DNA of 64,000 nt from Armatimonadota bacterium (GCA_040289885.1 PSLZ01000006.1:37211-101210); one strand, 5' to 3'; numbered from the stretch's first letter, positions 19,424 to 59,898 are shown. Notes: generated from the sequence alone by a model not told the origin. Numbers and translations are program-made.

Positions 19424-22120
19424 TCACCTCATCTCCCCCATGTAGAGCAGTCCCGGGCAGACCGGCAGGCGCGGCATCGGGGGCAGTCGCCGCCCGTATT
19501 GATCGACGCGCACCATCCCTGCCGCGGTGAACACCGGGTCGTACTCCATCACCAGGTTATAGCCCATGGGCAGGTTGCGCGTCGGGTCGCGCGGGTCGCG
19601 CAGGTGGAAGGGCGGGATCGGGATACCGGAGTTGCCGAACTGGGGCGGTATCCAGCCCCACTTCTTCAGCCACTCGCCCTGGTCCTGGATTGCCCATGGC
19701 AGGTTTTCGGCTATCGCGCCTCGGATGGTGATGCGGATGTCCAGCGGTTGTCCGTAGAACGGATACATCGGTGTCAGCACGTTGTACATCTGCCGGCGCA
19801 GGTTCTGGTCTACCGAGGACGGGCTGGTGCCGACGGGGAAGGTGTCGCGCGGGTCGGTGTTGAACCACTCGCCGGGCAGAACCACGAACGAGCCCTCCTG
19901 CGCGTACATCAGCGCTTCGATGGCGATGTCCAAGGGCACCACCGCCACCCGGCTCAGATGGTACTCGTTGGCGGGAGCATTGCCCCATCCGCTGTTGACC
20001 TCGAAGGTCAATCGGTTTTCCGCCCCCGGTTGCACGTTCAGCGTGTAATCACTGCGCGGGTTGGTGGGGTGCGTGGGCGGGTTGGTGTTGAAGGGCGCCA
20101 TATTGCGCAGGAGTTCCAGCCCCAGGTGCTCGTAGTTCACGCCCGAAGCGTTGACCAGATAGATGGTCGGCAGTCCCAGCGCATCCGCCAGACCGCCTGG
20201 GAAGCGGTACAGGTCCTCGTCCAGAACGCCGTTGCCGTTGGTATCGTTCACCGGGTAGTTGACATGCAGGAAGATGCTGGTCTGTTCGTTTTCGATAGCC
20301 GCGTGGCGCACCAGCAGTTTCAAGCCGTGCGGCCAGGTGTTGCTGTAGTAGTTGTACAGCGCGATGGCGGACGAGAAGACAAAGGATTGCCGCTGGGTGG
20401 GCAGTAGCGCACGATGCCACGATGGGAACTTCAGAGGCGCGTCCTGCTCGTTCCAGCTGCCTGCCTCCGTGCCCAGTTCGGGGTCGATAAACAGGGTGGT
20501 GTTGAGCACCACGTTCTTTTTCGCCAGCAAGGCAATGGCGCTGGTGTTATCGGGCTGACCGTTCGGCAGGCGTGGCTTCATCAGGTTGCCCTCGATGAAG
20601 ATGTCGCCTCCGGAGACCACTGTCAGCTGTTTGCCCAAGGGGATTATGCCGCGTATGCGCACGTTACCCTCGGCGTAGATGACCCCCGAGAACGGCGTCA
20701 CGAAGGGCAAGCCCACCGCCGGTTTGTTCAGCGACGGGTCCAGCAGGTCTTGCGACAACCGCCCATCCGGCAGATAGGTGCACACCATGGTGACCGCATT
20801 GGTTGGCGCACCGTTGGGAGCACGCCATCGCCCGCGCGTGAGCTGGATGGTAAAGCCAGTGGGGTTCAGGCGGATGATCGCCCCTGGTGGCACGTAGTAG
20901 GGTCCCTGCCAGTTGCGCGAGTCTATCAGTCGCAGGAACTCACTGCGCACGGTGGGACCGCCGAACAGTCCCGGTTCACGCAGGAGGTCGGCGCGGTTGT
21001 TGATGTAGATACCTCTGCCGAAGCCGAACAGCCCGCTATTGCGCCCGCCAACCAGCGCGCCCGAGTTGCGCGTCATGCTCCAGTAGCGGTTGACGTTGGT
21101 GGCAGGGTCGGGCAGGTCGATAACCGGCGGTTCGAGGCGTGTGATAGAGCGTCCGCCGCCGTCCACGCCGACGCCCGTGCGTCCGTCGCGCACGATCCCG
21201 CCATAGGTGTTGAAGGTGACGCTGTTGCTGGGCAGGAGGGGATTATTGTTCACGGTTACCTGCGCTCTGGGCGCGAGCAAGATATCTCCCGCTACCTCCA
21301 GCCGGTCACCGTTTTGCGGGTTCAAGGTAAGCTCCACCCCGCCGTGCCATCGCACGTTGCCGTTGATTCGGATAGGGGCACCGCTGGTGTTACTGCCCCA
21401 TATCAACCGGACGGGCAGGGGGTTGCCGTTGACGTCATGTCCGACGATACCCTCCGGCACGCCCAGTTCCACCACCGCGTTGGCGCGATTGTCCAGATTG
21501 GTCACGAAGCGCAGGTAATCGGTGATTCCCATGGCTTTGTAGGCGACCATCTCGCGCTTCAGCCCGGTGGCGGCGCTGGTGAGCATCGTTGGGTCGTTAG
21601 GGTCAATTCTGCCCACACGCCCGATGGATTCGATCTTTATGAACCGCGAGAGGGGACCCGATTCGGGGTCGTTCGGGTTATAGGGGCGCGGGTTGTAGCT
21701 GACTCGGATCAGCGCACGCCCGTTTTCGAACAGCACCCGGCTGTAGCCCCCACTGGGTCCCGCGGTGGGTGTGCCGCACGGGTTGAGTGTGGTGGACTCG
21801 GTGGGGGCGTACGGGCGGAGCCACGGATAATCCGGGTCGCGGCACTGGTCGGGAGGCAGGTTCGCTGGCACCGGGCGCCAGTCTGCGCCTTCCTCGCTGT
21901 AGGTCAGCTGTTGGTCGGCGTACTGGATGCCTGCTTCCGCGAAGTATTGTGCGTCGGTCACCCTGCCACTGCGTGCGGCGTTTTCCAGGTTGCGCCCGAT
22001 AATCGCCACGAACAGCGCACCCATGAACATCATCACGAACATGACCACCACCGCCACAATCAGCGTTTGACCACGCTGTGTGTGAGTGGAACAGGGTTGT
22101 AACCGTACTGGGCTGTTCAT
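19424..22120 (-). CDS. GspK/PilX-like minor pseudopilin, unusually large (898 aa).
   Basis: N-terminus ...QRGQTLIVAVVVMFVMMFMGALFVAIIGRNLENAARSGRVTDAQYFAEAGIQYAD. It resembles the GspK N-terminal segment (QRG + hydrophobic helix, no Glu+5) followed by A..AEAG. It lies 22 nt downstream of the previous pseudopilin gene. Confidence 0.55.
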   Translation of the reverse strand: MNSPVRLQPCSTHTQRGQTLIVAVVVMFVMMFMGALFVAIIGRNLENAARSGRVTDAQYFAEAGIQYADQQLTYSEEGADWRPVPANLPPDQCRDPDYPWLRPYAPTESTTLNPCGTPTAGPSGGYSRVLFENGRALIRVSYNPRPYNPNDPESGPLSRFIKIESIGRVGRIDPNDPTMLTSAATGLKREMVAYKAMGITDYLRFVTNLDNRANAVVELGVPEGIVGHDVNGNPLPVRLIWGSNTSGAPIRINGNVRWHGGVELTLNPQNGDRLEVAGDILLAPRAQVTVNNNPLLPSNSVTFNTYGGIVRDGRTGVGVDGGGRSITRLEPPVIDLPDPATNVNRYWSMTRNSGALVGGRNSGLFGFGRGIYINNRADLLREPGLFGGPTVRSEFLRLIDSRNWQGPYYVPPGAIIRLNPTGFTIQLTRGRWRAPNGAPTNAVTMVCTYLPDGRLSQDLLDPSLNKPAVGLPFVTPFSGVIYAEGNVRIRGIIPLGKQLTVVSGGDIFIEGNLMKPRLPNGQPDNTSAIALLAKKNVVLNTTLFIDPELGTEAGSWNEQDAPLKFPSWHRALLPTQRQSFVFSSAIALYNYYSNTWPHGLKLLVRHAAIENEQTSIFLHVNYPVNDTNGNGVLDEDLYRFPGGLADALGLPTIYLVNASGVNYEHLGLELLRNMAPFNTNPPTHPTNPRSDYTLNVQPGAENRLTFEVNSGWGNAPANEYHLSRVAVVPLDIAIEALMYAQEGSFVVLPGEWFNTDPRDTFPVGTSPSSVDQNLRRQMYNVLTPMYPFYGQPLDIRITIRGAIAENLPWAIQDQGEWLKKWGWIPPQFGNSGIPIPPFHLRDPRDPTRNLPMGYNLVMEYDPVFTAAGMVRVDQYGRRLPPMPRLPVCPGLLYMGEMR

Positions 22121-22142
22121 TTTGCGTACTCCCCTCCCGCTC

Positions 22143-24002
22143 TCATCGTAACAGGTTGCGCACCCGCACCTGTGTGGTTAGCGACATCAACAGCGGGTCG
22201 CCCGTTGTTGGGTCATACAGCTTGATGCTGATCGCCAGCGTGTATTGCGAGCGCGTCATGTAATCGACCTTCACCACATCGCTTTCGGTGTTCGCCTGCA
22301 CCGCGTAGGTGACGCGCAGAAGGTCGTAGGGTGTGCCATCACCGCGTGTGCCCGACGGTATCTGCCACAGTGCCCAGAACTCCACATAGCCCGTCTGCAG
22401 GGTCGGGTGTCCACTGCTGGGGCCCCGATAGTTGATGCGGTACTGGTTGGCCCCCGGCGTGACGTTCCATGGCACTCGGGTATACGGCACCAGGCGTGGC
22501 TCGGTGCCGGGCGGGGCGGTCTGGTCTGGTCCCCAGATTCGCTCCGAGCCGGGCACGATGGAAACCGACGCCAGCAGTTTCAAGGGGCTTTGCCGGTTGT
22601 TGGACGCGGTGTTATTGATGTCGGGTTCCGACAGGAGCAGGTATCGCCGTCCGCTCTCGTCCACCTGGGTGTTGCGGGCGAGATATTCGAACACCGGTCG
22701 TTCGCCGGGTCGGAACACCGCCACCGCTGGGATGGCGAAGTTAATTGTGCCCGAGCGCGGGTCGATGGTAAACGGCAGGTACGGATAGGGCGCGTCCAGA
22801 GAGCCGGGGTTGCGCTCCCACGAGCCATCCCCCTGCATCCACGGGTCGGGCAGGTTCGAGCAGACTCCTGGGTCCCACGTGCCCTCTTCGTAGCATCCTG
22901 CCGACTGCATCCGCTGATAGGCGGTTATATTGAACCGATAGGCATCGGCCGCGCCGCGTGCAACCACCAGTTCACCACCGAGATTGCCCGTCATATACAC
23001 GGAGGCGAACCCATTGCGGTAGACGGTGACCACGAACGGATAGCTCCATCCGCCCTTCTTGGTGGTATAGGCGGTGGGGACGGCATTGGGCACCTCGTTA
23101 ACTGCGTCGCCCAGTGTGGTGGGCACCGCCGGGTCGTCCGTGACCAGCCCGGGCAGGAACTGGATGAGCGGGGTGACCTGTACGATCTGCCCCTGTTGGT
23201 TATACTGCACGTTCACTAGGTCGATATCTTCCACTTCGGTGACTGGGCGGCTGACCTCCAGCCAGTTCTGCATGTAGGACTTGCCGTTTGGGGCGGGGCT
23301 GGTGTCGTAGAAGAAGCCCGGCTCGTCGATGATCGGCTGTCCGTTCGCATCCAGTTTGAACAATCGGGTGTTGGGCACAAACGCTCCGTTGCCATTGCGC
23401 TCGTACAACACGAACTGGGCGCGCCACAGGATATATGGGTTATCCACCGCCGCGGCGAGCAGTTGCTCGTTGCGGTTGCTGTAGGGCTTGCTGGGGTCGC
23501 GCCGGGCGATGAAGTAGCGCACGATCGTTCGCCCTGCCAGCACCGGCAGAGAAGGCGGTTTGCCCGTTCTGTAGTCTGGCGGCACGTAGTCACTGCCGTC
23601 GGTTGGGTCGGTAACGCCGGTGGCGTTCGGCGTGACACGCTCTGGTGGCACGAAGTCGATCTTGGTATAGGGCAGGTAGAAGGTGACCGGGCTTCCCTGT
23701 CGGTCCACTAAATCGAAGCGCAGGGTAGCGTCGTTCACGGGAGTGCTGGTGGTCAGGGGGTTCAGCACCCGCGAGTTGTCGAACACATAGGCGGCGTCGG
23801 CGATTTCGCGCGCGATGGTTTCCATCAGGTCGCGAGCGGTATCCTGCGCCTGCGCCACCCGCTGGACGCGCCGCGTGAAGTTAAAGCTCTGCAGCATGGG
23901 GCCCAGCAGTAGCCCCAGCATGATGGCGGTAATCGCCATCACCACCAGCAGTTCCACCAGTGTAAACCCTGCCCGGAACCTCATGTTGCCCGTGTCTTTC
24001 AT
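22143..24002 (-). CDS. Prepilin-type N-terminal cleavage/methylation domain protein (pseudopilin-like, 619 aa).
   Basis: ATG at 24000-24002 with RBS aggag: MKDTGNMRFRAG|FTLVELLVVMAITAIMLGLLLGP. This is a class III signal with Gly-1, Phe+1 and Glu+5. The ORF-track start at 24011 is a GTG three codons upstream. The rest is a large Thr/Pro/Asn-rich secreted domain. Confidence 0.75.
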   Translation of the reverse strand: MKDTGNMRFRAGFTLVELLVVMAITAIMLGLLLGPMLQSFNFTRRVQRVAQAQDTARDLMETIAREIADAAYVFDNSRVLNPLTTSTPVNDATLRFDLVDRQGSPVTFYLPYTKIDFVPPERVTPNATGVTDPTDGSDYVPPDYRTGKPPSLPVLAGRTIVRYFIARRDPSKPYSNRNEQLLAAAVDNPYILWRAQFVLYERNGNGAFVPNTRLFKLDANGQPIIDEPGFFYDTSPAPNGKSYMQNWLEVSRPVTEVEDIDLVNVQYNQQGQIVQVTPLIQFLPGLVTDDPAVPTTLGDAVNEVPNAVPTAYTTKKGGWSYPFVVTVYRNGFASVYMTGNLGGELVVARGAADAYRFNITAYQRMQSAGCYEEGTWDPGVCSNLPDPWMQGDGSWERNPGSLDAPYPYLPFTIDPRSGTINFAIPAVAVFRPGERPVFEYLARNTQVDESGRRYLLLSEPDINNTASNNRQSPLKLLASVSIVPGSERIWGPDQTAPPGTEPRLVPYTRVPWNVTPGANQYRINYRGPSSGHPTLQTGYVEFWALWQIPSGTRGDGTPYDLLRVTYAVQANTESDVVKVDYMTRSQYTLAISIKLYDPTTGDPLLMSLTTQVRVRNLLR

Positions 24003-24045
24003 CGGTGCCACTCCTATTTCACCCCTGATATGCTTTCCATTTCTG

Positions 24046-25881
24046 TTATTCCGCTTCGCGCGTCAGAATAGTTTCCACCTCATAGCGTTGCCAGCGATTG
24101 TTCTCCTTCCAGACCACACGAGCCTTAAACGAAGCCCCTTTCACCCCGCGCACCACATAGCCATAACTGTTGTAGGCAGACAGGTCCAGCGAAACCGCTG
24201 TAGGTTTCACGTCGCGAATATCCACATAGCACAGCGGTCGTCCCCCCACGTTCTCGGTACGAGTACTGATGCGCGCTAGCACCCCTCGCATGACGTCCTT
24301 GCCTAGCACGCTGTCGTTATAGAACACCTCGCCGAGGATGACCTGCTTGCCCGCATCGCACACGGGGAAGTAGATGCGCGAGGGAGAGCCGCCGTCCGCG
24401 CCGCCGCCGACGTAAAACTCGCGGTAGCTGAGCAGGTTGCCGTATCGCTCCCGGTACAGCTCGTAGGGCTTCAGCACCTGCACACCCCAGTCGCCGTCCG
24501 CTTGGTAGTAGAAGCGCAGAGTATGCCCCGCCAGCGTGGGGTCCACCACGTTCACGATACCATTACGGTAGTCCACCTGATACGAGCCGGTATCGTCTTG
24601 CCCCACGATGGGGTCGATGATTTGTCCGGTTTGCAGGTCCACCGCCACGAAGTCCGGTTGCTGGCGCACTGGGTCGCCCTGGGGCAGAGCGTTCCAGTTC
24701 ACCCCGCGAATAAGCCCTTCGTAGGTAGTCTGGTCATCCAGTTTATCGCCGCGCTTGCGCAGGAAGCGCAGGTTGAGTTTGACCTCGGTGGGCACGGTAG
24801 GCACTAATCGGTCTTCGCGGATGATGTGCCAGTCCAGCACAGTGTAATCGATATGCGCGGTCAACGGCACCACACCGCGAGCGGTGCGCTCGGTATAGTC
24901 GCGTCCCGCCGGGTTGAACAGGAGCACCCCCACATTGGCGTAGGGACCGATGTTGCCGTAAAGGATTTTGAACTCATAGGGGTCTTGCGACCACGCCTGC
25001 CCCAGCGGGATCAGGCGGAACTCACGGCTGACCAGCTCACTGCCCGGTCGCATCCGCCATCCCGATTCCAGGATGGGCTTGCCATCTGGTCCCGTGTAAC
25101 TACGCAGTTCGATCCGGACTGGCTCTCCCGTCAGCCCCACGACGTTGGGGATGGTCTTGGATACCGATTTGAGCTTCCACCCATCGTTGCCGTCGTAGTA
25201 GTCGTAAGAGATGGTGAAGTCGCGCGCATAGGGCGTCGGGTAGAACCAGAGGACCACGTCATCGAACGCGCCATCGTCGCTGGCATCGTAGTCGATGGCG
25301 TATTGATGTGGACCGCGCAGGGGTGGCGGGGCATCTTCTTGAGCGTTCCACAGCATTCGCACCATCGGTGAGCCGTAGACGTTGAGGTTGTTCAGCCGCC
25401 ACACCTGCGAGACCGGGTCGTAAAGCGGCTGGTCGACAAAGGGACCTGCGCTCAACACGTATACCGAGCCTTGTCCGACCATGGTGGGCACGGGGATAGG
25501 GATACGCACTTTCTCACCAACCACCCGGCGCCAGCGGTTAATGTCTGAGTAGTAATAGGCATCGATTCCCGGAGGCAGTGCGGGCGGCGCCAGGTTATCG
25601 GGGTGTGCGCCAACGTCGATCGCTTCGCCGGTGGTGCCGCCGTCGGAATAGGGCGCCAGCGCGAGGATGCCCGACGGCAGTGCGGTGGCGTTATTCTTCC
25701 ACCGTTCGATCTCCTGCTGAGCCAATCGGCTAGCGAACGAGCGGTTCTCCGCGGCGCGGGTGACAAAGAACCCGCCCGGGAACAGCTTCAGAATCACCAG
25801 AATACCGATGGTCAGCACGGCGATCGCCGCCAGCACCTCGATTAGCGAAAACGCGTAGATGTTTTGTTTTCTACCCATCAT
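24046..25881 (-). CDS. Prepilin-type N-terminal domain protein (pseudopilin-like, 611 aa) with Ala at -1.
   Basis: MMGRKQNIYA|FSLIEVLAAIAVLTIGILVIL has Phe+1 and Glu+5, but Ala rather than Gly before the cleavage site. It lies 34 nt downstream of the pilin-like gene. Confidence 0.7.
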   Translation of the reverse strand: MMGRKQNIYAFSLIEVLAAIAVLTIGILVILKLFPGGFFVTRAAENRSFASRLAQQEIERWKNNATALPSGILALAPYSDGGTTGEAIDVGAHPDNLAPPALPPGIDAYYYSDINRWRRVVGEKVRIPIPVPTMVGQGSVYVLSAGPFVDQPLYDPVSQVWRLNNLNVYGSPMVRMLWNAQEDAPPPLRGPHQYAIDYDASDDGAFDDVVLWFYPTPYARDFTISYDYYDGNDGWKLKSVSKTIPNVVGLTGEPVRIELRSYTGPDGKPILESGWRMRPGSELVSREFRLIPLGQAWSQDPYEFKILYGNIGPYANVGVLLFNPAGRDYTERTARGVVPLTAHIDYTVLDWHIIREDRLVPTVPTEVKLNLRFLRKRGDKLDDQTTYEGLIRGVNWNALPQGDPVRQQPDFVAVDLQTGQIIDPIVGQDDTGSYQVDYRNGIVNVVDPTLAGHTLRFYYQADGDWGVQVLKPYELYRERYGNLLSYREFYVGGGADGGSPSRIYFPVCDAGKQVILGEVFYNDSVLGKDVMRGVLARISTRTENVGGRPLCYVDIRDVKPTAVSLDLSAYNSYGYVVRGVKGASFKARVVWKENNRWQRYEVETILTREAE

Positions 25882-25914
25882 GCCTCCACCGCCTTTCGCC
25901 AGGTGGGTTGGTTG

Positions 25915-26700
25915 TTAGTCCAGGCACCAGAACTTGTTCTGTCCCGCGTTGCTAAAGTTGGGGTCATTGCCCGTCATTTTCTGCTTGATGATGCGCGAGT
26001 CCACCGGTCTAGCCGTTCCGCTGAGTAGAAGCACAATGTCTTTACTGCCCGTGGTGGGTTGACCCGCGCTATCGCAACTGCGGTGGTCGGAGACCCAGGT
26101 CACGATCGTGTTCTCCGGCGGCAGGTTATACTGCAGTTGGCACATATCGTCTAGCGGTCCAGCGGTATTGTTGGTGGGCACGTACGGACGGTACAGGCTG
26201 TAGTGTTGCTCGTACACTCCGCTTCCGGGACAGGTTGTGCCGATGTCCATACTATCGAACAGGTAGTATGGGCGCGTGACCAGGATGCCGTTGATCTCGT
26301 TGACGCGCTGGTTGGGGTTGTTCGGATCAGGCAGTAGCACTTCCACATTCTTCCAGCTCACTTTGTCGTTTATTGGGTTGTTGGGGCTGCGGAAGATATT
26401 GATGTCGCGGATGTACGCCTGATACAGGAAGCTACCTCTGATCCTGTCCGCTGGCACAGGAGCGTTGTTACTGAACTCCACGTAGCCCAACAGCACCTCG
26501 GGATACACGCGGTTGTCCTGTTTGTACATCTTCAGTGCCACCTGTATCTGGTGCAGGTTGGACATTGTGGTGGTGCGGCGTGCCTGTTCGCGCACGGTTG
26601 CCGCTACCGGAAAGATGATGGCGGCGAGCACGGCGATAATGGCTATCACCGTGAGCATCTCCACCATCGTAAACGCGCTGGTGTAAATCCGGTCTCGCAT
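25915..26700 (-). CDS. Pilin-like protein (261 aa) with a prepilin-type N-terminus. Candidate major subunit or first gene of the pilin operon.
   Basis: MRDRIYTSA|FTMVEMLTVIAIIAVLAAIIFPVAATVREQARRTTTMSNLHQIQVALKMYKQD. The N-terminal approximately 60 aa resemble the DUF1559-type prepilin N-terminus of the genes at 35870 and 39892, but no H-X9-DG C-terminus is present. RBS ggaacgagg. Confidence 0.7.
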   Translation of the reverse strand: MRDRIYTSAFTMVEMLTVIAIIAVLAAIIFPVAATVREQARRTTTMSNLHQIQVALKMYKQDNRVYPEVLLGYVEFSNNAPVPADRIRGSFLYQAYIRDINIFRSPNNPINDKVSWKNVEVLLPDPNNPNQRVNEINGILVTRPYYLFDSMDIGTTCPGSGVYEQHYSLYRPYVPTNNTAGPLDDMCQLQYNLPPENTIVTWVSDHRSCDSAGQPTTGSKDIVLLLSGTARPVDSRIIKQKMTGNDPNFSNAGQNKFWCLD

Positions 26701-26719
26701 AGTCGGTCACCTCGTTCCT

Positions 26720-26966
26720 TTCCTGTCGGTTTTGACGACTCCTTTAAGAGCTTTGTTCCCCCTGCTTAAACAGGCTGTCGGTCGGGATCTGCAGTTCTGG
26801 TAATACTTCCGAGCGCACAGTGTCGCCTCTGCCGTAAAGCCCTATCCGTTCCTAGTGCAGGGCTCATGACCGGTTCCCCGTCGATGACTGCACAGGGTTG
26901 GTTGGTCTCCGGCAGGCGGAGCCATTCTTTATATGTCAGCCGTTTTACTGGAGAAGGTAGCGCCAT
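26720..26966 (-). pseudogene. Uma2-family (DUF820) endonuclease remnant. The N-terminal and C-terminal fragments are in different frames.
   Basis: MALPSPVKRLTYKEWLRLPETNQPCAVIDGEPVMSPAL matches the Uma2 N-terminal signature (TyeEyl.LPe....ElIdGel.vMSPa). A +1 frame downstream reads ...GDTVRSEVLPELQIPTDSLFKQ, the typical Uma2 C-terminus. The whole is only about 80 codons, against about 190 aa for intact members. This indicates an internal deletion with a frameshift. Confidence 0.5.
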
Positions 26967-26977
26967 CGGTACGCCTC

Positions 26978-28003
26978 CTATCCTCCTCCTGTAGCCCAAC
27001 GCCAGTAGGCTTCCCACAAACCCAGCACATAGGGCTTACCAATGAGTGCGAGAAGGGTGGAAGCCACGATATAGGGACCGAAGGGAATGGTAGTGATACC
27101 GGGAACGAACTCCTCTTCCTCAAGTGGGGATGCGCTTTTTTTCTGTGGGAAAAGCCACCCCCGCACCCCATCCACCACGAACAGCACCACGTCCAGCGCC
27201 ACCAGCAAAGCCAGGCTGTAGAGTAGCATCTGCGCGAGCGGCTCCGGGGATGCCAATGGAGCCGTGTCAGAAGGTGCGGGTTCAGCGACAGGGTGTTGTT
27301 TGAGGGTAAGCACGACCAGAAGCCCTCCTACCACCGCTCCCAGCGCCACCGCACCCGCGAAAGCCAGCAGAGCGAGCTTGAGCGGAATCATCGCGCCGAT
27401 CGCTCGCGCCAGTTTCACATCTCCAAATCCCAGCGCATCCTTTCGAAACATCACTCGCCCCATCAATGCGATGGTTGCAAACACTGCCGTACACACCACT
27501 GCCCCCACGAGGGCATAGGGCAATCTCCAACCGCCCACCAGCACCCACGCTTGCGGGTCCCCTTCTGCGATGAGCATCAGGTTGCGGGCGATGCCCAACA
27601 CCAGCATAAAAACGTTTAAGCCATCAGGTATCAAGAGATGTTCCAGATCGATGAAAAAGGCAGCGATCAGCGCCGCGGCGAACAGCACGTAGAACAGGGT
27701 ATCCCAGCTCCAGCCGTAGCGCCAGTAAATCCCCCAAAAGAGCAATCCGGTAGTCAGTTCCACCCAGAAATAGCGCCACGAGATGCGCGCTCCGCAGTAA
27801 CGACATCTGCCCCTTTGCCACAAGAAGCTCAGCAGGGGCACCAGGTCTTTTGCGCCCAGCTCGGTCTTGCAGTTCGGGCAGTGGGAGCGTGGTTTGACTA
27901 TCGATAAACCACGCGGGAGGCGGTAGATGAGCACGTTCAGGAAACTGCCTACCACCGCCCCATAGAGAAACACCACCAGCCCGATGTACCAATCTGGCAT
28001 CAC
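26978..28003 (-). CDS. pilD: Prepilin peptidase (A24 family) PilD.
   Basis: An N-terminal zinc-binding CPNC...CRYCG tetra-Cys precedes the multi-TM A24 domain (IDLEHLLIPDGLNVFMLVLGIA, GFGDVKLARAIGAMI). Confidence 0.85.
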   Translation of the reverse strand: MMPDWYIGLVVFLYGAVVGSFLNVLIYRLPRGLSIVKPRSHCPNCKTELGAKDLVPLLSFLWQRGRCRYCGARISWRYFWVELTTGLLFWGIYWRYGWSWDTLFYVLFAAALIAAFFIDLEHLLIPDGLNVFMLVLGIARNLMLIAEGDPQAWVLVGGWRLPYALVGAVVCTAVFATIALMGRVMFRKDALGFGDVKLARAIGAMIPLKLALLAFAGAVALGAVVGGLLVVLTLKQHPVAEPAPSDTAPLASPEPLAQMLLYSLALLVALDVVLFVVDGVRGWLFPQKKSASPLEEEEFVPGITTIPFGPYIVASTLLALIGKPYVLGLWEAYWRWATGGG

Positions 28004-28056
28004 GCGTTGGCTTCTGTCCTCCGCTCTGGCTGGGGGGCGAAACCGCCCCCCAGCGA

Positions 28057-29292
28057 TTATTGTCCGCCAGCGCCGCCTTCCTGCTGGCCGCCCGCAAGGC
28101 TCTGCACCGCGGTAACCAGCGGCAACAGCAAGGAGATGACGATGAAGCCCACCATACCGCCCAGCAGAACGATGAGCACGGGTTCAATCGCGGAGGTGAG
28201 CGCTTGTACGGTGGACTCCACCTCGGACTCGTAGAAGTCCGCCACTTTGGACAGCATCTGGTCGAGCGCACCCGATTCCTCACCGATGGAGATCATATGC
28301 ACCACCATCGGCGGGAACATACCGCTCTTTTCCAATGGCGGTCCGATGCGGTCACCCTCGCGGATGCGGGCACGGGCTTCCATCACCGCCTCGGCGATAA
28401 TCTCGTTCGCCACGGTGCCAGCGACCGTCTCCAGCGCCTGCAGGATGGGCACGCCGGAGCTAAGCAGGGTGCTCAGCGTGCGCGAGAACCGCGCCAGAGC
28501 GATCTTGTGGTTGAGCGGACCGAACACCGGCAGTTTCAGTTTCAGGCGGTCATAGAGTCTGCGTCCGATGCGCGTGCGCACGAACATCCGGAAGGCGATG
28601 ACCACGAGTACCACGACGGCGATCATGACGTACCATCGGCTGGTGAGGAAGTTGCTGAAGTCCATCAGCATCCGCGTCATCACTGGGAACTCTTTGATGC
28701 GCAGGTCTTTATACACGTCAAAGAACTTGGGCAGGATGAAAGTCACCAGCCCGATAACGACCACCAGCGCGACGATCACCACGATGGCGGGGTAGACCAT
28801 CGCGGCGCGCACCTTACGGCGCAGGGCAACGTCGGCTTCGAGGAACGCTGCCAGACGCTGAAGGCTCTCTTCCAGAACGCCGCCCACTTCTCCAGCGCGG
28901 ATCAAGCCGATGAACAGGTTGGAGAACACGTTGGGGTATTTGCTCATCGCCTTGGACAGGGTTTGACCAGCTTCCACTTCCGCCTGGATGTCAACCAGGA
29001 TGCGGCGCAGTTTGGGGCTTTGTGTCTGCTGAGCCAGCACGTCCAGACTGCGCACGATCGAGACGCCCGCATCCTGCATGGTCGAGAACTGGCGGCAGAA
29101 GATCGCCAGGTCGCTGAGTTTAACGCGCCCCCAACCGCCACCGGGTCGCTGAGCACGAATCTGGCGCACTTCGGTGACGGTGAAGCCCTGTTCCTGCAGT
29201 CGCTTGCGCAGGATTTCCGCGCTTTCCGCCTCCGAAGTGCCCGAACGCACCGTGCCCATCGAGTCACGGAAGGTGTAGGCAAAAGTTGGCAT
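28057..29292 (-). CDS. pilC: Type IV pilus assembly platform protein PilC/GspF.
   Basis: 411 aa with a duplicated GspF domain (LAIFCRQFSTMQDAGVSIVRSLDVLAQQT..., ...ARFSRTLSTLLSSGVPILQALETVAGTV...). Confidence 0.85.
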   Translation of the reverse strand: MPTFAYTFRDSMGTVRSGTSEAESAEILRKRLQEQGFTVTEVRQIRAQRPGGGWGRVKLSDLAIFCRQFSTMQDAGVSIVRSLDVLAQQTQSPKLRRILVDIQAEVEAGQTLSKAMSKYPNVFSNLFIGLIRAGEVGGVLEESLQRLAAFLEADVALRRKVRAAMVYPAIVVIVALVVVIGLVTFILPKFFDVYKDLRIKEFPVMTRMLMDFSNFLTSRWYVMIAVVVLVVIAFRMFVRTRIGRRLYDRLKLKLPVFGPLNHKIALARFSRTLSTLLSSGVPILQALETVAGTVANEIIAEAVMEARARIREGDRIGPPLEKSGMFPPMVVHMISIGEESGALDQMLSKVADFYESEVESTVQALTSAIEPVLIVLLGGMVGFIVISLLLPLVTAVQSLAGGQQEGGAGGQ

Positions 29293-29375
29293 TAAGCATC
29301 CCTCCTCTACGAGTAGCGGGTTACGTGTCCGTCACCCTTTACTGACGCACCGCAAGCGGACGCCTGCGGGTCTAT

Positions 29376-30566
29376 TTATCGCCCACGGGCAACCACCGTG
29401 CCCTCGGTCACGGTGGGCGTAATGAGCTTCTTGAGCTCATCGGAGTTCATTGCCCGCGACAGTGCCTCTTCGAGTGTAATCCAGCCCTTCATGTACAGGT
29501 CGCGCAGGGACTGGTCCATCGTTTGCATCCCCACGTTCGCGCTGGTCTGGATGACCGAGGTGATCTGGTGTGCCTTGTTTTCGCGGATGAGGTTTCGGAT
29601 CGCCGGGGTAGCGATCATCACCTCAACGGCGGGCACACGTCCCGGTTGTCCCGCGCGCGGCAACAGTTGCTGGCAGATAACCGCCTGGATGCTGTTGGAC
29701 AGTTGGATACGGATCTGCTCCTGCTGTCCGGGCGGGAACACGTCCACTATCCGGTCGATGGTGGTAGCGGCGCTGTTGGTGTGCAGGGTTGCCAGCACCA
29801 GGTGTCCGGTTTCCGCCGCGGTGATTGCCAGCGCGATAGTTTCGGGGTCCCGCATTTCGCCCACAAGGATCACGTCCGGGTCTTCGCGCAGGACCGCCCG
29901 CAGGGCGTTGTGGAACGATTTGGTATCCTGCCCCAGTTCGCGCTGGTTAATGATGCTGAAGCGGTGCGTGTGCAGGTATTCGATAGGGTCTTCGATGGTG
30001 ACGATATGCACGCTCCGCTCCATATTGATCTGGTTAATCATCGCCGCCTGGGTGGTGGATTTACCCGAGCCGGTGGGACCGGTCACGATGATCAGTCCGC
30101 GAGGCAGGCGGGTAAGCTCTTCCAGCACCGGGGGCAGGTTCAGTTCGCGAATAGTGGGGATGCGGGTCGGAATCAGTCGGAACGCTGCGGCGACCGCTCC
30201 CCTATCGCGGTATACGTTCACACGGAACCGCGCCATTTTGCCCAGCGAGTAGGAGAAGTCCAGCTCCAAAGTGCTCTCGAACCGCTGGATCTGTTCGTCG
30301 GTCAGGATATCGTACATCAACCGCTGGGTATCCTGCGGGGTCGCTTTTTCATAATTGGTGGGGATTAACCTGCCGTCCACGCGGATAACGGGCGGTATGC
30401 CTGCGCACAGATGCAGGTCGGACGCTCCTTTTTCCACGACGATGCGCAGGAGGTCATCGATATGGGCATCTTCCAGACTGCGCGGGCGCACTGCTGCCGC
30501 CGCGGAGGTGGCGGATGGTTGCCCCCCGATGGTTGGTTCGATATCGAACTGCGTCGTCTGCTCCAC
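29376..30566 (-). CDS. pilT: Twitching-motility retraction ATPase PilT.
   Basis: ASDLHL..., Walker A GPTGSGKST, and a PilT-type signature around VAAQRLLP; here LATLHTNSAATTIDRIVDVFPP...AVICQQLLP. Confidence 0.85.
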   Translation of the reverse strand: MEQTTQFDIEPTIGGQPSATSAAAAVRPRSLEDAHIDDLLRIVVEKGASDLHLCAGIPPVIRVDGRLIPTNYEKATPQDTQRLMYDILTDEQIQRFESTLELDFSYSLGKMARFRVNVYRDRGAVAAAFRLIPTRIPTIRELNLPPVLEELTRLPRGLIIVTGPTGSGKSTTQAAMINQINMERSVHIVTIEDPIEYLHTHRFSIINQRELGQDTKSFHNALRAVLREDPDVILVGEMRDPETIALAITAAETGHLVLATLHTNSAATTIDRIVDVFPPGQQEQIRIQLSNSIQAVICQQLLPRAGQPGRVPAVEVMIATPAIRNLIRENKAHQITSVIQTSANVGMQTMDQSLRDLYMKGWITLEEALSRAMNSDELKKLITPTVTEGTVVARGR

Positions 30567-30591
30567 GGAAACTTCTGCCTCCTTTGAGTGA

Positions 30592-32361
30592 TTAGTGTCC
30601 TGCGGTGAAGACCACGCGCATCACTTCGTCCGGCGTGGTAACGCCTTCGAGCACCTTCAGCAAGCCGTCTTCGCGCAGTTCATGCATACCGTTCGCCTTA
30701 GCGGCGTCGCGGATGTCTGCCAGAGGCGCACGTCGGACGATCAGCTCCGCGATTTCGTCGTTCACGCGCATCAGTTCGAAGATACCGATACGTCCGCGGA
30801 AGCCGGTGTATCGGCACGCTTCACAGCCTCGCCCGCGCCACAGGGTGACCATCTGGTTGGGATGTTCGGGACGGAAGCCGAAGCGCCTCAGGTCCGCGGC
30901 AGGCACTTCATAAGGCTCTTTGCAGTGCGGGCAGAGGCGTCGTGCCAGACGCTGTGCCAACACGCCGATGACGGTCGCCGAGATCAGGTAAGGCTCCACG
31001 CCCATATCCACCATACGGATCGCCGCAGACGGGGCGTCGTTTGTGTGCAGGGTGGTCAAGACCAGGTGTCCCGTCAGCGAGGCTTCGATGGCGATTTCGG
31101 CGGTTTCCAAGTCGCGCATCTCACCGACCATGATGATGTCCGGGTCCTGGCGCAGGAAGGAGCGGAGAGCGTTGGCGAAGGTTAAGCCCGCTTTACGGTT
31201 GACCTGCACCTGGCTGATGCCCGGCAGTTGGTACTCCACCGGATCCTCAATGGTGATGATGTTCTTCTCGATGGAGTTCAGTTTGTGCAGGACGGAGTAC
31301 TGGGTGGTGGTCTTGCCCGAACCGGTTGGACCGGTAGAGAGCACCATGCCGTTGGGCTGAACCACCAGTTCCTCGAGTTGCGCCTGCACTTCGGGGGTGA
31401 ATCCCAGTTTCTCCAGGCCGATGAGGATGCTGGTCTTGTCCAGGATGCGCATCACGATCTTCTCGCCCATGCCGGAGCTCAGGTGCACCGGGATGGAGGA
31501 GACGCGCAGGTCGTAGTCTTTGCCTTCCACCCGGATAGGGATACGCCCATCCTGCGGGAGGCGTCGCTCGGCGATGTTCATCTCCGCCATGATCTTGTAG
31601 CGCGAGATGAGCGGAGCCTGGATGTATTTGGGCAGGGTCATGATTTCGTGGAGCACGCCGTCAATGCGGTAGCGGATGCGCACGCCGCGCTCTTGGGGTT
31701 CGACATGAATATCGGAGGCGCGCTCCTTCACCGCCTGCTGGATGATCGTATTGGCGATGCGCACGATGGGCGCCTCTTCCGCCACGCGGGCGGCGCTTTC
31801 CACATCCTCCTCGTCCACGTTCATGCCCACACCGACTTGCGCGATGTCGGCTTTGATTTGCGCCATCATTCCCCCGCCCACCGGTGCGGCAGCTGCTTGC
31901 GTCTCCTGTTCGGGCGCCCTGCCTACCACCGACTGGTAGGCGCGGTTAATGGCATCCTCGATGGCGTCTGCTGCTGCCAGTGCGGGGCGAATCGTGCACC
32001 GCGACACCAGCCGCAGGTCATCGAACGCCAACACGTTGTTCACGTCCGCCATCGCCACGGTCAGCACGTTGCCGTCTTTGAGGATGGGCACGACCTTGTG
32101 CTGGCGAGCAATTCGCTCAGGGACAACATTCACCGCGCTGGGGTCAATGGTGAAGGTGTTGAGGTCCACAAAGGGAACCCCCAGCTCCTGCGCACGCGCT
32201 TCTGCCACCTGTGCAGGCGTTGCCCACTGGTTCTCGACGAGTATCCTGCCCAGCTCTCCGCCCGAACTGCGGTGGATTTTCTGTGCCTGCTCCAGCTGTT
32301 CGCGCGTGATGTAGCCTCGCTCGACCAGGTATTCGCCTAGGCTTTTTCTTACCGTTGCCAT
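30592..32361 (-). CDS. pilB: Type IV pilus assembly ATPase PilB/GspE.
   Basis: 589 aa. N-terminal GSPII domain (MATVRKSLGEYLVERGYITREQLEQAQ), Walker A GPTGSGKTTT, and a tetra-Cys CPHC...CEAC. Confidence 0.85.
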   Translation of the reverse strand: MATVRKSLGEYLVERGYITREQLEQAQKIHRSSGGELGRILVENQWATPAQVAEARAQELGVPFVDLNTFTIDPSAVNVVPERIARQHKVVPILKDGNVLTVAMADVNNVLAFDDLRLVSRCTIRPALAAADAIEDAINRAYQSVVGRAPEQETQAAAAPVGGGMMAQIKADIAQVGVGMNVDEEDVESAARVAEEAPIVRIANTIIQQAVKERASDIHVEPQERGVRIRYRIDGVLHEIMTLPKYIQAPLISRYKIMAEMNIAERRLPQDGRIPIRVEGKDYDLRVSSIPVHLSSGMGEKIVMRILDKTSILIGLEKLGFTPEVQAQLEELVVQPNGMVLSTGPTGSGKTTTQYSVLHKLNSIEKNIITIEDPVEYQLPGISQVQVNRKAGLTFANALRSFLRQDPDIIMVGEMRDLETAEIAIEASLTGHLVLTTLHTNDAPSAAIRMVDMGVEPYLISATVIGVLAQRLARRLCPHCKEPYEVPAADLRRFGFRPEHPNQMVTLWRGRGCEACRYTGFRGRIGIFELMRVNDEIAELIVRRAPLADIRDAAKANGMHELREDGLLKVLEGVTTPDEVMRVVFTAGH

Positions 32362-32491
32362 CGCTCTCTCACCCCGTCTCGTCGTTTCGGTCCCACTTGG
32401 TGCTTCTCGCGCCAGAAGCGGGTGTGCCTTGAATGATTCCTCAATTCACCAGACAAGCGATTATAGCACGATCGCGCAAGACTCGCAACCT

Positions 32492-35735: not shown

Positions 35736-35869
35736 GCTAAATATCTATGCAAAAGGAGGTGGTGTGGGTTACAGGATAAGTAGGTGTCCGCATGAGATTT
35801 ACTTTTTTCCATGGCGCAACGGTTCGTAAACCAATTTCATCACTTTACAAACAAGAAGGAGGGTGCCAC

Positions 35870-36718
35870 ATGAAACGACATGGTTTTACGCTCATCGAGC
35901 TGCTGGTGGTTATCGCGATCATCGCGATCCTGGCGGCGATTCTGTTCCCGGTGTTCGCACAGGCACGCGAGAAGGCGCGACAGGCAAGCTGTCTCAGCAA
36001 CACCAAACAGCTAGGGCTTGCGTGGGCGATGTACGTGCAGGACTACGACGAGCGCACCACACCCGCAAAGGTTTGTAATCACACGTACTCGGGTGCCAAT
36101 CCGGTTCCCGGACGTTACCTGTGCTGGGGGGCGCGAACAGACTACAACTGGAACTGGGATTGTGGGGCGCCATATGCTGGCTGGTACGACTTGCTGGCAC
36201 CCTACATGAAGAACTACGGCATCCTGCGCTGTCCCTCCAACCCGAACCGTGGCTACTATCCTTATGACAGCGCAGGTAACCCTACCGCCGAGACCGCACC
36301 TGGGGGCAGTTGGGAAAACTTGAGGAATACCTACGCGGTGAACTTCTATGCGGTGGCGACGAATATCATCTGGAACCTCGCGTCCACCAGGAGCTGCTAT
36401 GCCAACTGGGACGGCCGGGGTGCGAACATCGCGAAGTTCTCCGCTCCCGCCAGCCTCATCGCTATCGTGGAGGCGTACGGCACCTGCCCGGATATCCGCA
36501 ACGTGGTTACCAATGTGGACTGCTCCGCGCACAACCGAGGCTCCAACTACATCTTCGCAGATGGGCACGCCAAGTGGATGCGGATCGTCGCCACGCTGGC
36601 ACCGGAGAACCTTTGGGTGGATGCTTCTGAGCCGGATGGGCGCGCCTGTGTGGCTAACGCCTATATGAATCGGCTGACCTCCGACTCCCGTACCAGCACC
36701 CAGTGCCTCGGTCAGTGA
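35870..36718 (+). CDS. DUF1559 'H-X9-DG' protein with a prepilin-type N-terminal cleavage/methylation domain.
   Basis: RBS ggaggg then ATG: MKRHG|[57 protein letters not shown]-terminus [16 protein letters not shown] (H-X9-DG). It is paralogous to 39071-39892. Confidence 0.85.
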
Positions 36719-41348: not shown

Positions 41349-41546
41349 GATGTACCTCCTTTCGCGTATGCAAGAGCTCTCCATCACACCTATTATGCAA
41401 GAATCGTGCCAAAACCCTGCCTTTTGCGGATTTCGGCGAAAACAATGGTAATAATAACGGTTTTGAAAACGAAGATACAATCCTGCGAGATGTCCGGTGT
41501 ACGCTCCGGTTCCGAGTGGTAAATGCATACGTACCCGAACAAAGTA

Positions 41547-41555
41547 TGCTATACT
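41547..41555 (+). promoter_or_regulatory. Extended -10 element (TGcTATACT) upstream of hslVU.
   Basis: tatgcTATACTaag lies 35 nt upstream of the hslV ATG. No convincing -35 is present. Confidence 0.3.
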
Positions 41556-41589
41556 AAGAGATGGGGGAGACCTCCGCAGGAGAGATACT

Positions 41590-42123: not shown

Positions 42124-42140
42124 GCGCGCTAAAGGAGCAT

Positions 42141-50166: not shown

Positions 50167-50169
50167 GGC

Positions 50170-51456: not shown

Positions 51457-51467
51457 GTTTCCCTCCT

Positions 51468-51521
51468 CCTGTGCCAAGCTATGCCTCTAACATTCCTGTG
51501 CCAAGCTATGCCTCTAACATT
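51468..51521. repeat. Perfect tandem duplication of a 27-nt unit (cctgtgccaagctatgcctctaacatt x2).
   Basis: It spans the junction between the nnr stop codon (inside unit 2) and the RBS of the FHA gene. Confidence 0.8.
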
Positions 51522-53986: not shown

Positions 53987-54000
53987 ATGGAGGTGCAAAG

Positions 54001-54453: not shown

Positions 54454-54460
54454 CACAAAG

Positions 54461-59895: not shown

Positions 59896-59898
59896 GGT

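Follow-up and report, generated by a model that had tools for sequence, protein, structure and literature searches.

The locus lies in a 64-kb stretch of Armatimonadota DNA (64,000 nucleotides, here called the window) whose host is nearest to 'Bacterium HR16' and Chthonomonadia Ch118. All genes of the unit are encoded on the minus strand. In the direction of reading, pilB for the extension ATPase (589 aa, 30592..32361), pilT for the retraction ATPase (396 aa, 29376..30566), pilC for the inner-membrane platform protein (411 aa, 28057..29292) and pilD for the prepilin peptidase/N-methyltransferase (341 aa, 26978..28003) are followed, after a gap of 277 bp, by genes for prepilin-type proteins of 261 aa (25915..26700), 611 aa (24046..25881), 622 aa (22143..24011) and 898 aa (19424..22120). 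This series had been listed in an earlier note on the same DNA, and its coordinates and lengths proved exact; ruvX, mltG, yqeG and aroE, said to lie upstream and to be co-directional, were indeed seen on the same strand. The unit runs past base 19424, where the note had ended it, to base 7880 and includes two more genes of the same strand, encoding Sec-exported proteins of 1512 aa (14813..19351) and 2277 aa (7880..14713). The intergenic gaps are 72 bp between the 898-aa and 1512-aa genes and 99 bp between the 1512-aa and 2277-aa genes. Together, the six products of the cassette, from the 261-aa to the 2277-aa protein, amount to ~676 kDa as encoded. In the gap between aroE and pilB, a promoter-like site (32460..32488, minus strand; TTGCGA-17-TATAAT, extended TG) matches at 10 of 12 positions, a consensus match only. 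Six promoter-like sites were found in the region against 3.2 +/- 1.6 in shuffles, and promoter function is weakly predicted for this one.

Family membership of PilB is certain. The protein matched PF00437 (T2SSE) with 455.5 bits in a Pfam search, Walker A (GPTGSGKT) and CxxC...CxxC motifs are visible in its translation, and its N-terminus carries an MshEN domain (PF05157, 74.5 bits) with a c-di-GMP motif (NF053729, 59.6 bits against a cut-off of 38). The full-length match to TIGR02538 (PilB) reached 646 bits, just below the equivalog cut-off of 675.65, and that to TIGR02533 (GspE) reached 611 bits, likewise just below its equivalog cut-off; these scores would leave the choice between PilB and GspE subtype undecided. 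PilT was assigned by TIGR01420 (PilT/PilU family; 512.5 bits against a cut-off of 319.1, spanning 2-343 of 343), and its gene adjoins pilB here and in every related locus with pilB. PilC matched PF00482 (T2SSF) twice with 219.8 bits, above the Pfam cut-off. Its best NCBIfam match was the Thermus-type PilC NF052607 (413 bits), followed by the Myxococcus-type PilC (404 bits) and GspF (391.5 bits), all three below their equivalog cut-offs. In PilD, PF06750 (A24_N, 123.7 bits) and PF01478 (Peptidase_A24, 56.3 bits) both exceeded the Pfam cut-offs, and the translation shows FIDLEH..LIPD and GFGDVK, which we take to be the catalytic aspartate motifs. PilM, PilN, PilO, PilP and secretin domains were found in none of the 29 other ORFs of the window that were scanned against Pfam, in agreement with the lack of pilMNOPQ claimed before.

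The four proteins encoded after pilD begin with prepilin-like N-termini (slash at the cleavage site): SA/FTMVE in the 261-aa protein, YA/FSLIE in the 611-aa protein, AG/FTLVE in the 622-aa protein (canonical AG/FTLVELLVV) and RG/QTLIV, without Glu5, in the 898-aa protein. The cleavage motif is kept, together with Glu5, in 59/60 orthologues of the 261-aa, 64/65 of the 611-aa and 60/65 of the 622-aa family. In the 898-aa family it is kept in 72/79, and position +5 is I, V, L or M and never Glu among the 79 orthologues. Over the four families, the class III signal motif is present in 255 of 269 orthologues. Since it is conserved across orthologues at 25-40% identity, the prepilin-like N-termini are not due to chance, and the large proteins can be regarded as genuine prepilin-type subunits, as had been supposed. 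Matches of the large pilins to pilin families in sequence are confined to the first 30 to 80 residues. In AF2 models, from which the 622-aa protein was left out, a pilin alpha1 helix of 50-60 residues is packed on a beta sheet.

The 261-aa protein, in the FimU/GspH position, is the only small pilin of the cassette, with a median length of 269 aa in its family. It matched GspG (TIGR01710; E 6.6e-12, residues 9-98) below the cut-off and PF07596 with 23.6 bits against a cut-off of 23.3, over residues 36-73 only, and it shares 36% identity over 122 aa with a DUF1559 paralogue at 35792-36718. Besides the 261-aa protein, two DUF1559 prepilins are encoded in the window. As to the C-terminal H-X9-DG motif of DUF1559 prepilins, many orthologues carry '..LFLDGH..' at their end, where the copy in the window reads '..LLLSGT..'. 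By sequence, the protein looks like a diverged relative of DUF1559/GspG-type pilins. The 611-aa minor pilin carries an all-beta extension of ~540 residues. The 622-aa protein (family median 636 aa) was recognised by PF07963 with 28.9 bits, above the cut-off, and its N-terminus matched HpsC, Verru_Chthon protein C and GspH, all below cut-off; the profile of its family matched solved pilins in the alpha1-N segment only. The globular parts of the 622-aa and 611-aa families are unrelated, as hhalign aligned only 64 N-terminal columns. By position and N-terminal matches only, the 611-aa protein would correspond to PilV/GspI and the 622-aa protein to PilW/GspJ.

For the 898-aa protein, no family match was found in Pfam or NCBIfam, and the profile of its family (40 members) gave no match at E <= 1 to PDB sequences, ComZ included. 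Its AF2 model is almost all beta past residue 74. The model predicts a GspK-like pilin domain without Glu5, joined to a large ice-binding-protein-like beta-solenoid, together with beta-sandwich domains like CBM35/36/6; parts resemble accessory domains of glycoside hydrolases. GspK, XcpX, ComZ and S. sanguinis PilA were its structural neighbours. Judged by this model, the protein is a PilX/GspK/ComZ-like capping pilin and a member of the described ComZ/cyanobacterial PilX class of beta-solenoid tip pilins (PMC6561018; bioRxiv 10.64898/2026.02.12.705559). The locus had not been recognised as a described system; this stands for the six-gene module, for which no published description and no paper on the locus were found, but not for its largest pilin. 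In this class the insertion sits between the last two strands, and the extreme C-terminus thereby rejoins the pilin sheet. The 898-aa protein has a last strand (891-895) modelled with confidence (pLDDT 83-92), and its final 20 residues are conserved, which would point to completion of the sheet in cis rather than in trans.

Signal peptides are visible in both the 1512-aa and the 2277-aa protein. In the family of the former, which occupies the pilY1 position, 15 of 17 orthologues matched DUF4159, three matched NHL and two PQQ_2, and the family profile matched NHL propellers of the PDB (Pizza, Brat) at positions 1063-1174. A DxDxDG loop at 359 (DIDGDGNED) is nearly invariant, and the C-terminal tail 'QP[ST]xADR' is conserved. 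The 2277-aa protein matched PF25275 (Golvesin_C) twice (90.3 bits against a cut-off of 31.6) and also has a long region lacking an assigned domain. Its family comprises 391 cluster representatives of 2100-3280 aa, with a profile matching PQQ/BamB propellers of the PDB at 490-852 (3hxj, E 1.4e-26; BamB, ~1e-10) and a highly conserved C-terminus, 'VNEGQxxAFKDPxxxKVWVFWxSTRxGxxDxYYETISPxFY', followed by 5-8 variable residues. The giant propeller proteins of the earlier note were thus borne out, as NHL-type repeats in the 1512-aa family and a BamB/PQQ-type propeller in the 2277-aa family. Domains resembling carbohydrate modules occur in the cassette as Golvesin_C in the 2277-aa protein and as the CBM35/36/6-like domains of the 898-aa protein. 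Like the PilC/PilY1 adhesins, both giants have a Sec signal, are very large and are encoded after a pilK/pilX homologue. PF05567 (PilC/PilY1) gave no match in either of them at E <= 0.1 in Pfam, and no PilY1 chain was among the PDB matches of the two family profiles.

The gene order 261-611-622-898-1512-2277 was identical in all related loci with enough flank, in a synteny set of 80 loci and 186 species hits, nearly all from Armatimonadota, at 25-40% identity. In most lineages pilB-T-C-D lies immediately upstream of the cassette, while in one subgroup of the Fimbriimonadales the cassette is found among housekeeping genes, away from pilBTCD. In three loci (L084, L086 and L088, the last being the cultured Fimbriimonas ginsengisoli, CP007139.1) the 2277-aa gene is followed by pilM, three small genes, a gene for an STN protein, the secretin gene, aroK and aroB. 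In L087 the 2277-aa gene lies apart from the pilin genes and pilM follows it, and in L089 (HR15) the stretch from pilM to the secretin gene is located 5 kb further downstream. PilM, which is widespread in Armatimonadota, and the secretin of these relatives scored 130 bits (PF11104) and 127 bits (PF00263). A pilMNOPQ-aroK-aroB synteny is typical of T4aP systems. As relatives carry the genes from pilM to secretin, aroK and aroB right after the cassette, a complete type IVa pilus set is indicated, and the lack of pilMNOPQ from the window does not support a non-canonical filament. F. ginsengisoli is non-motile, bears fimbriae and has 79 PulG-like genes (PMC4072686).

Taken together, we consider a retractile pilus of type IVa, in which an ordinary machine carries an oversized tip module, to be the probable (about 0.7) product of the locus. 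The machine would be that of a canonical type IVa pilus, with only the tip module unusual. The conserved class III signals suggest that the 261-, 611-, 622- and 898-aa proteins would each have a short leader removed by PilD. On the PilC platform, the 611- and 622-aa subunits would join the 898-aa protein in a priming complex, as gene order, motifs and predicted fold suggest. Without Glu5 the 898-aa protein would take the apex position, like GspK, PilX and ComZ, and the 261-aa GspG/DUF1559-type pilin would come next, either as adapter or as shaft subunit. PilB, with its predicted c-di-GMP-binding MshEN domain, would extend the fibre and PilT would retract it, as expected from their families, while the envelope conduit would be supplied by PilMNOP and the PilQ secretin, whose genes presumably lie outside the window in this genome. 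With their beta-solenoid, CBM-like and beta-sandwich domains, the three giant pilins could form a large adhesive head, and the Sec-exported 1512-aa and 2277-aa propeller proteins are most likely PilY1-like tip-associated adhesins, possibly docking via their conserved C-terminal tails. This role of the two giants is the weakest step of the scheme. In a published precedent, a C-terminal beta-strand licenses the tip complex; it is supplied in cis by PilK homologues that carry large insertions, or in trans by large proteins whose genes come right after pilK (PMC13533445). The 898-aa protein, having a conserved terminal strand of its own, may need no partner strand, which would leave the two giants without a known docking mode. 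The pilus probably serves to attach the cell to surfaces or particles rich in polysaccharide. Of the ideas put forward before, that of a pilus carrying very large subunits as decoration agrees best with the evidence, these being placed at the tip and not along the shaft.

The gene order had been described as unusual. However, a pilin followed by PilV-, PilW- and PilX/GspK-like proteins and a large Sec-exported propeller protein is the standard order of fimU-pilV-pilW-pilX-pilY1 (PilHIJK with PilC/PilY1) and gspH-I-J-K, and MSHA mshDOPQ has the same order. Shared with the PilY1 module are the Glu5 pilins, the cap without Glu5 and a huge Sec-exported propeller protein with a short conserved C-terminal tail. 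The cassette differs from it in lacking PF05567/IPR008707, its propellers being of the NHL and BamB/PQQ types, in having two giants instead of one and pilins three to four times larger, and in a cap with its own conserved terminal strand. By adding a beta-strand, with a C-terminal plug of roughly 10-12 residues, a protein of the PilC/PilY1 type can complete the sheet of PilK, and MshQ (~1200 aa) has been proposed as a PilK plug by position alone (PMC13533445; bioRxiv 10.64898/2026.09.18.752573). Modular type IV pilins are known from S. sanguinis PilB and PilC, CofB and GspK, and in a survey by InterPro signatures the largest case had 860 aa (PMC8179133). In contrast to these, the modules found here carry no signature, and three consecutive core subunits are enlarged instead of one accessory pilin. 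The Verru_Chthon cassette A-D of Verrucomicrobiota (TIGR02596-TIGR02600) is likewise a multi-gene prepilin-type cassette and includes very large members. The N-termini of the 261-, 611- and 622-aa proteins matched its proteins D, B and C weakly over the first 40-60 residues (21.8 vs 70, 19.5 vs 51.4 and 24.4 vs 256.5 bits), in agreement with the positional order, and the 898-aa protein did not match protein A in NCBIfam. As all scores were below the NCBIfam cut-offs and protein A gave no match, membership in this cassette was rejected.

The pilus genes could instead build a T2SS-like or Hps-like pseudopilus, a short periplasmic piston with the giants or a polysaccharide as exported cargo, which we regard as unlikely. 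It draws on GspE and GspF scores (611 and 391.5 bits) nearly equal to those of the pilus models, on the GspG-like 261-aa pilin, on the encoded bulk of the tip, which speaks against secretin passage, and on the N-terminus of the 622-aa protein, which is nearest to HpsC (E 3.7e-8), a pseudopilin of polysaccharide secretion from the cyanobacterial hps set (HpsA/PilX_EPS-PilV_EPS). The matches to HpsB and HpsC, however, are N-terminal only, at 33 bits against a cut-off of 200. A T2SS has no retraction ATPase, whereas pilT lies directly beside pilB in every locus with pilB. The neighbour of the cassette in relatives is PilM and not GspL/GspM, and no GspC, GspL or GspM domain was found in the window. 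Fimbriae are visible on F. ginsengisoli, and a strict 1:1 synteny of two 'cargo' genes throughout the phylum would be unusual for T2SS substrates. The insert of the 898-aa protein resembles beta-solenoids, unlike the alpha-helical domain in the pilin sheet of GspK. A T2SS-like exporter for DUF1559 proteins, another idea of the earlier note, is not supported, in view of the pilT gene and of the prepilin N-termini of these proteins, by which they would be cleaved by PilD and become subunits of the filament or the membrane instead of cargo. On the other side, a generic Armatimonadetes system was reassigned to T2SS by Denise et al. 2019, many T2SS substrates have beta-propeller platforms (PMC13533445), and an expanded cyanobacterial PilX (HpsA) is encoded in a polysaccharide secretion locus. 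HpsA exceeds 1280 aa, has extra undefined domains and has been proposed as a polysaccharide adhesin, and cyanobacteria are generally without a PilY1 homologue (bioRxiv 10.64898/2026.02.12.705559). Compared with the cyanobacterial sets, the PilV- and PilW-like subunits also reach ~600 aa here and two non-pilin giants are added. In the searches made, the six-gene module was found almost only in Armatimonadota.

Quite unlikely is a Thermus-type competence pilus for DNA uptake, in which the 898-aa ComZ-like cap would be a DNA receptor and would not serve adhesion. The best PilC match is of the Thermus type, and the layout of the cassette is similar to T. thermophilus pilA1-pilA2-pilA3-comZ(-pilA4). 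The Thermus partners, however, are small (PilA1 156, PilA2 193, PilA3 233 and ComZ 554 aa, against 261, 611, 622 and 898 aa here), the search of PDB sequences, including ComZ (6qvi), revealed no similarity in sequence, and the DNA-binding lysines of ComZ could not be mapped on the 898-aa protein. The latter has additional CBM-like beta-sandwiches, and the two conserved giants with propellers and carbohydrate modules are without Thermus counterpart. Neither comEA, comEC nor dprA was found in the window, and a DNA-uptake role is not indicated. The fold itself does not predict function, as solenoid PilX proteins of cyanobacteria occur in both motility and competence pili. Hardly credible, finally, are ordinary secreted or membrane-anchored enzymes with chance prepilin-like N-termini beside pilus genes: the short N-terminal pilin matches, the lack of a family match for the 898-aa protein and the likeness of its model to CBMs and glycoside-hydrolase accessory domains would fit, but the conserved cleavage motifs with Glu5, its absence throughout the 898-aa family, the long alpha1 helices on a sheet, the pilin-type structural neighbours, the H-I-J-K-like order throughout the phylum and profile searches detecting no catalytic domain bring this reading close to refuted.

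The Armatimonadota are a widespread and little cultured phylum, in which the genus Fimbriimonas was named for its fimbriae; to our knowledge, almost nothing is known about the surface structures of these bacteria. The results assign to such fimbriae a concrete set of genes that is complete and has a six-gene tip module. In current pilus models, assembly is primed by a trimer of PilI, PilJ and PilK and licensed by a terminal beta-strand, and the whole tip has to pass the secretin; the module is an extreme test of these models. A secretin of known size would hardly pass ~676 kDa at one tip, and it is doubtful that all six products form one tip organelle. If they did, this tip would far exceed any known of a type IV pilus and be too bulky for a conventional secretin channel, and a novel assembly route would follow, for instance with the giants added beyond the outer membrane or with a secretin that is gated or wider than usual. 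A retractile pilus would then also be put to a novel use, that of grabbing polysaccharides, in a whole phylum of carbohydrate scavengers. The presence throughout the phylum of PilV- and PilW-type subunits of ~600 aa with two partners of 160-250 kDa indicates how large a cargo the conserved pilin scaffold can bear. The ComZ/cyanobacterial PilX beta-solenoid cap is extended to a third phylum of Terrabacteria, which supports this cap type being old there. The proteins of the six-gene module are mostly annotated as 'hypothetical', and a practical gain is a reliable annotation for several hundred such giant proteins.

The gene coordinates and lengths of the pilus locus agreed exactly with those of the earlier note, and all of the genes concerned lie on the minus strand. 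Downstream of ruvX (35389-34940), and of mltG, yqeG and aroE which extend up to 32492, are found pilB (32361-30592, 589 aa), pilT (30566-29376, 396 aa), pilC (29292-28057, 411 aa) and pilD (28003-26978, 341 aa). After a gap of 277 bp follow four prepilin-type genes encoding proteins of 261 aa (26700-25915), 611 aa (25881-24046), 622 aa (24011-22143) and 898 aa (22120-19424), and then the genes of two giant proteins of 1512 aa (19351-14813) and 2277 aa (14713-7880). Within this six-gene cassette the spacing is only 22 to 99 bp and the gene next downstream of the 2277-aa gene is convergent, so the unit runs about 11.5 kb past the end flagged previously. The gene order had been called unusual; it equals that of fimU-pilV-pilW-pilX-pilY1 and gspH-I-J-K, with a pilin, a PilV-like and a PilW-like protein, a cap devoid of Glu5 and a large Sec-exported propeller protein.

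Across the whole window the gathering score was reached by none of the Rfam families, among them the c-di-GMP riboswitches, and a terminator scan gave a result no better than shuffles. Within the 53 bp that separate pilC from pilD is a G+C-rich hairpin of 11 perfectly paired bp (GCTGGGGGGCG-aaac-CGCCCCCCAGC, 28029-28054), with no clear T-run after it on the coding strand. The gap between pilD and the 261-aa gene contains a short ORF on the minus strand (26849-26965; MALPSPVKRLTYKEWLRLPETNQPCAVIDGEPVMSPAL and a stop), which we take to resemble the truncated N-terminus of a Uma2/DUF820-type endonuclease; it may be the trace of an old insertion where pilBTCD and the pilin cassette meet.

The 898-aa family comprises at least 279 members, all of 860-1000 aa and almost all without a name; public names are inconsistent, several members being annotated as 'PulJ/GspJ' or 'GspH family'. 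A genome scan revealed relatives in 186 species-representative genomes, and nearly all of the best 80 are labelled Armatimonadota (Fimbriimonadia, Chthonomonadales, HRbin15/16). One cassette-bearing contig among these 80 (DATKWR010000502.1) carries the label Sedimentisphaerales (Planctomycetota), perhaps through mis-binning or as a rare case outside Armatimonadota. The window shows 91-93% identity to 'Bacterium HR16' and Chthonomonadia Ch118. The order and orientation 261-611-622-898-1512-2277 were the same in every locus with enough flank among the 80 related loci, and in most lineages pilB-pilT-pilC-pilD is located directly upstream of the cassette, with aroE often ahead of it. In one Fimbriimonadales subgroup, which lacks adjoining pilBTCD genes, the cassette stands alone, and a search for pilMNOPQ upstream of it found housekeeping genes only. 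This stand-alone cassette and the 277-bp gap after pilD suggest that the six genes form an operon of their own.

The earlier note had reported no pilMNOPQ genes in the window and proposed a non-canonical filament. The first statement was confirmed, as the 29 further window ORFs that were scanned contained no PilM, PilN, PilO, PilP, secretin, GspC, GspL or GspM domains. The second was not upheld, since look-ups of distant homologues of the 2277-aa protein located a PilM-to-secretin block adjoining the cassette in relatives. In two related loci, L084 and L086, PilM (PF11104, 130 bits) comes directly after the 2277-aa homologue and is succeeded by three small genes; then, after a short STN-domain protein in L084, come a secretin (PF00263, 127 bits), aroK and aroB. 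In a third (L087), pilM and three small genes come right after the 2277-aa homologue, up to the contig end. The layout recurs in Fimbriimonas ginsengisoli Gsoil 348, a cultured type strain, whose genome encodes proteins of 1535 and 2429 aa followed by PilM, four small genes, a secretin, aroK and aroB. 'Bacterium HR15' has the block from pilM to the secretin on the same contig, 5 kb farther along. The F. ginsengisoli genome was reported to encode PilB, C, D, Q and M together with six PilT genes and 79 PulG-like genes, and the organism is non-motile and bears fimbriae (PMC4072686). The ancestral layout was likely aroE-pilBTCD-[six-gene cassette]-pilMNOPQ-aroKB, with pilMNOPQ probably moved elsewhere in the lineage of the window. 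Shikimate-pathway genes occur on both sides of the pilus region, aroE upstream of pilB and aroK/aroB downstream. On the downstream side of the pilus genes, three distant Armatimonadota (L084, L086 and F. ginsengisoli, CP007139.1, 2591011-2612327) share the arrangement secretin, aroK, aroB, small ORF, PASTA Ser/Thr kinase. In 'Bacterium HR15' (BEHR01000003.1, 10001-11302) the PilM orthologue is publicly annotated as 'Cell division protein FtsA'.

Profile searches against Pfam and NCBIfam gave 455 bits for the pilB product on T2SSE; with the PilB model (646 bits) and the GspE model (611 bits) it fell slightly short of the equivalog cut-offs, and an MshEN-type c-di-GMP-binding motif scored above cut-off. 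PilT passed its family cut-off comfortably (512 versus 319), PilC contains two T2SSF domains with the Thermus-type PilC as its nearest model, and PilD shows the two prepilin-peptidase domains. We infer, at a probability of about 0.7, a retractile pilus of type IVa together with a tip-complex core, all functional statements here being based on sequence, predicted structure and synteny. The hypertrophied tip of this pilus is probably glycan-binding. A T2SS- or Hps-like pseudopilus with the giants as cargo would agree with the scores, which do not clearly separate PilB and PilC from GspE and GspF, and with Denise et al. 2019, who assigned an Armatimonadetes system to the T2SS; the conserved pilT and the PilM widespread across Armatimonadota nevertheless argue for a type IVa pilus, and we regard the pseudopilus as unlikely. 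A competence pilus like that of Thermus ranks just behind it as another improbable reading. What sets these two readings apart from the type IVa pilus is chiefly the function assigned, rather than the kind of parts involved. An exporter of the T2SS type for DUF1559 proteins, also suggested earlier, was rejected because these proteins are prepilins themselves. Two further DUF1559-type prepilins are encoded near the locus, at 35792-36718 (plus strand) and 39071-39892 (minus strand), and either could supply shaft subunits; the first is 36% identical to the 261-aa cassette pilin over 122 residues.

The N-termini of the four pilins read SA/FTMVE (261 aa), YA/FSLIE (611 aa), AG/FTLVE (622 aa) and RG/QTLIV (898 aa). 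Among orthologues from the 80 related loci the cleavage motif is kept in 59 of 60, 64 of 65, 60 of 65 and 72 of 79 sequences, respectively, at an overall identity of 25-40%. Position -1 is mostly Gly in the orthologues and Ala in two of the four pilins of the window's lineage. Glu5 is retained in the 261-, 611- and 622-aa families, while position +5 in the 898-aa family is occupied only by I, V, L or M; absence of Glu5 is a mark of the apical subunit, as in GspK and PilX (cyanobacterial PilX preprint, 2026). AlphaFold2 models built from the family alignments were confident for both proteins modelled: the 898-aa protein (pLDDT 83.3, pTM 0.85) has a helix at 16-74 and then a four-strand sheet, and the 611-aa protein (pLDDT 86.4, pTM 0.83) a helix at 12-62 and thereafter beta strands only. 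Given the conserved motifs, the Glu5 pattern and the alpha1 helix with sheet in the models, enzymes with hydrophobic N-termini by chance were set aside, a resemblance that we consider highly improbable, and the large proteins are genuinely of prepilin type, as first proposed.

Profile searches of Pfam, NCBIfam and PDB matched no more of the pilins than their first 30-80 residues (the alpha1-N segment) and found nothing for the 898-aa protein. A common origin of the 611- and 622-aa families was rejected, as hhalign aligned 64 N-terminal columns only; the two extensions are therefore not duplicates of each other. Membership in the Verru_Chthon or Hps families was likewise rejected on scores far below the cut-offs. 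ComZ consists of a GspK-like pilin domain with an inserted solenoid resembling ice-binding proteins, and a tip location was argued for it (PMC6561018); all cyanobacterial PilX proteins are reported to have the ComZ architecture, with an expanded HpsA subfamily (2026 preprint). On the predicted structure, the 898-aa protein would be a larger member of this ComZ/cyanobacterial PilX class, although profile searches detected no sequence similarity to ComZ. The PilI-PilJ-PilK trimer primes assembly after a terminal beta-strand completes the PilK sheet, and this strand comes in trans from PilC/PilY1, a role also predicted for MshQ, or in cis from PilK homologues that carry large insertions, e.g. GspK, CpaL and ComZ (PMC13533445; bioRxiv 10.64898/2026.09.18.752573). 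A confident, conserved strand at the C-terminal end of the 898-aa protein (891-895), seen in the model and the alignment, fits the cis type of sheet completion.

Both giants carry Sec signal peptides and conserved C-terminal tails, and either might dock in trans. In the 1512-aa family, 15 of 17 members have a DUF4159 domain, and the family is further marked by propeller repeats of the NHL type, a near-invariant DxDxDG loop (DIDGDGNED at 359) and a C-terminal 'QP[ST]xADR' tail. The 2277-aa family (391 cluster representatives, 2100-3280 aa) has a BamB/PQQ-type propeller at about 490-852 and ends in the highly conserved 'VNEGQxxAFKDPxxxKVWVFWxSTRxGxxDxYYETISPxFY' followed by a few variable residues; two Golvesin_C modules were found in the 2277-aa protein itself. 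A C-terminal propeller suspected in the latter from 'WxFW...G..D.YY' was dropped, with only three copies over 600 residues. No PilC/PilY1 domain was matched in either giant by Pfam and PDB profile searches. The giants may be tip-bound, a placement we make tentatively and at somewhat below an even chance. The encoded tip module amounts to about 676 kDa in total, which is hard to square with transit through a secretin of known size.

The pilus machine and the solenoid cap are already known, as are modular pilins, the largest noted before being 860 aa (PMC8179133). New are the conserved six-gene module nearly confined to Armatimonadota, the likewise ~600-aa subunits in the PilV and PilW positions, the two giant non-PilY1 propeller proteins as fixed partners, and the tie of the cassette to pilMNOPQ and the Fimbriimonas fimbriae. 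No description of the module was found in the literature on Armatimonadetes/Armatimonadota pili and on DUF1559.

Elsewhere in the window, a Pup-proteasome cluster occupies 56614-63342 on the minus strand. Two of its genes (56614-58131 and 60060-61631) belong to the Pup-ligase family; a proteasome subunit is encoded at 59113-59895, adjoining an unassigned 256-aa ORF (58237-59007), and 61642-63342 encodes an AAA ATPase of the Mpa/ARC type with OB domains. Separate from this cluster, an HslV-like proteasome-family subunit followed by an overlapping HslU-like AAA ATPase is encoded at 41497-43577 (plus strand). Tandem proteins of 485 and 435 aa with C-terminal FHA domains, two matches in the first, are located at 48709-51477 (minus strand). 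At 53974-56494 (plus strand), a MerT-like membrane segment is joined in a single 677-aa ORF to an HMA metal-binding domain and a pyridine-nucleotide disulphide oxidoreductase; this ORF, preceded by an ArsR-family regulator, looks like a MerT-MerA fusion.
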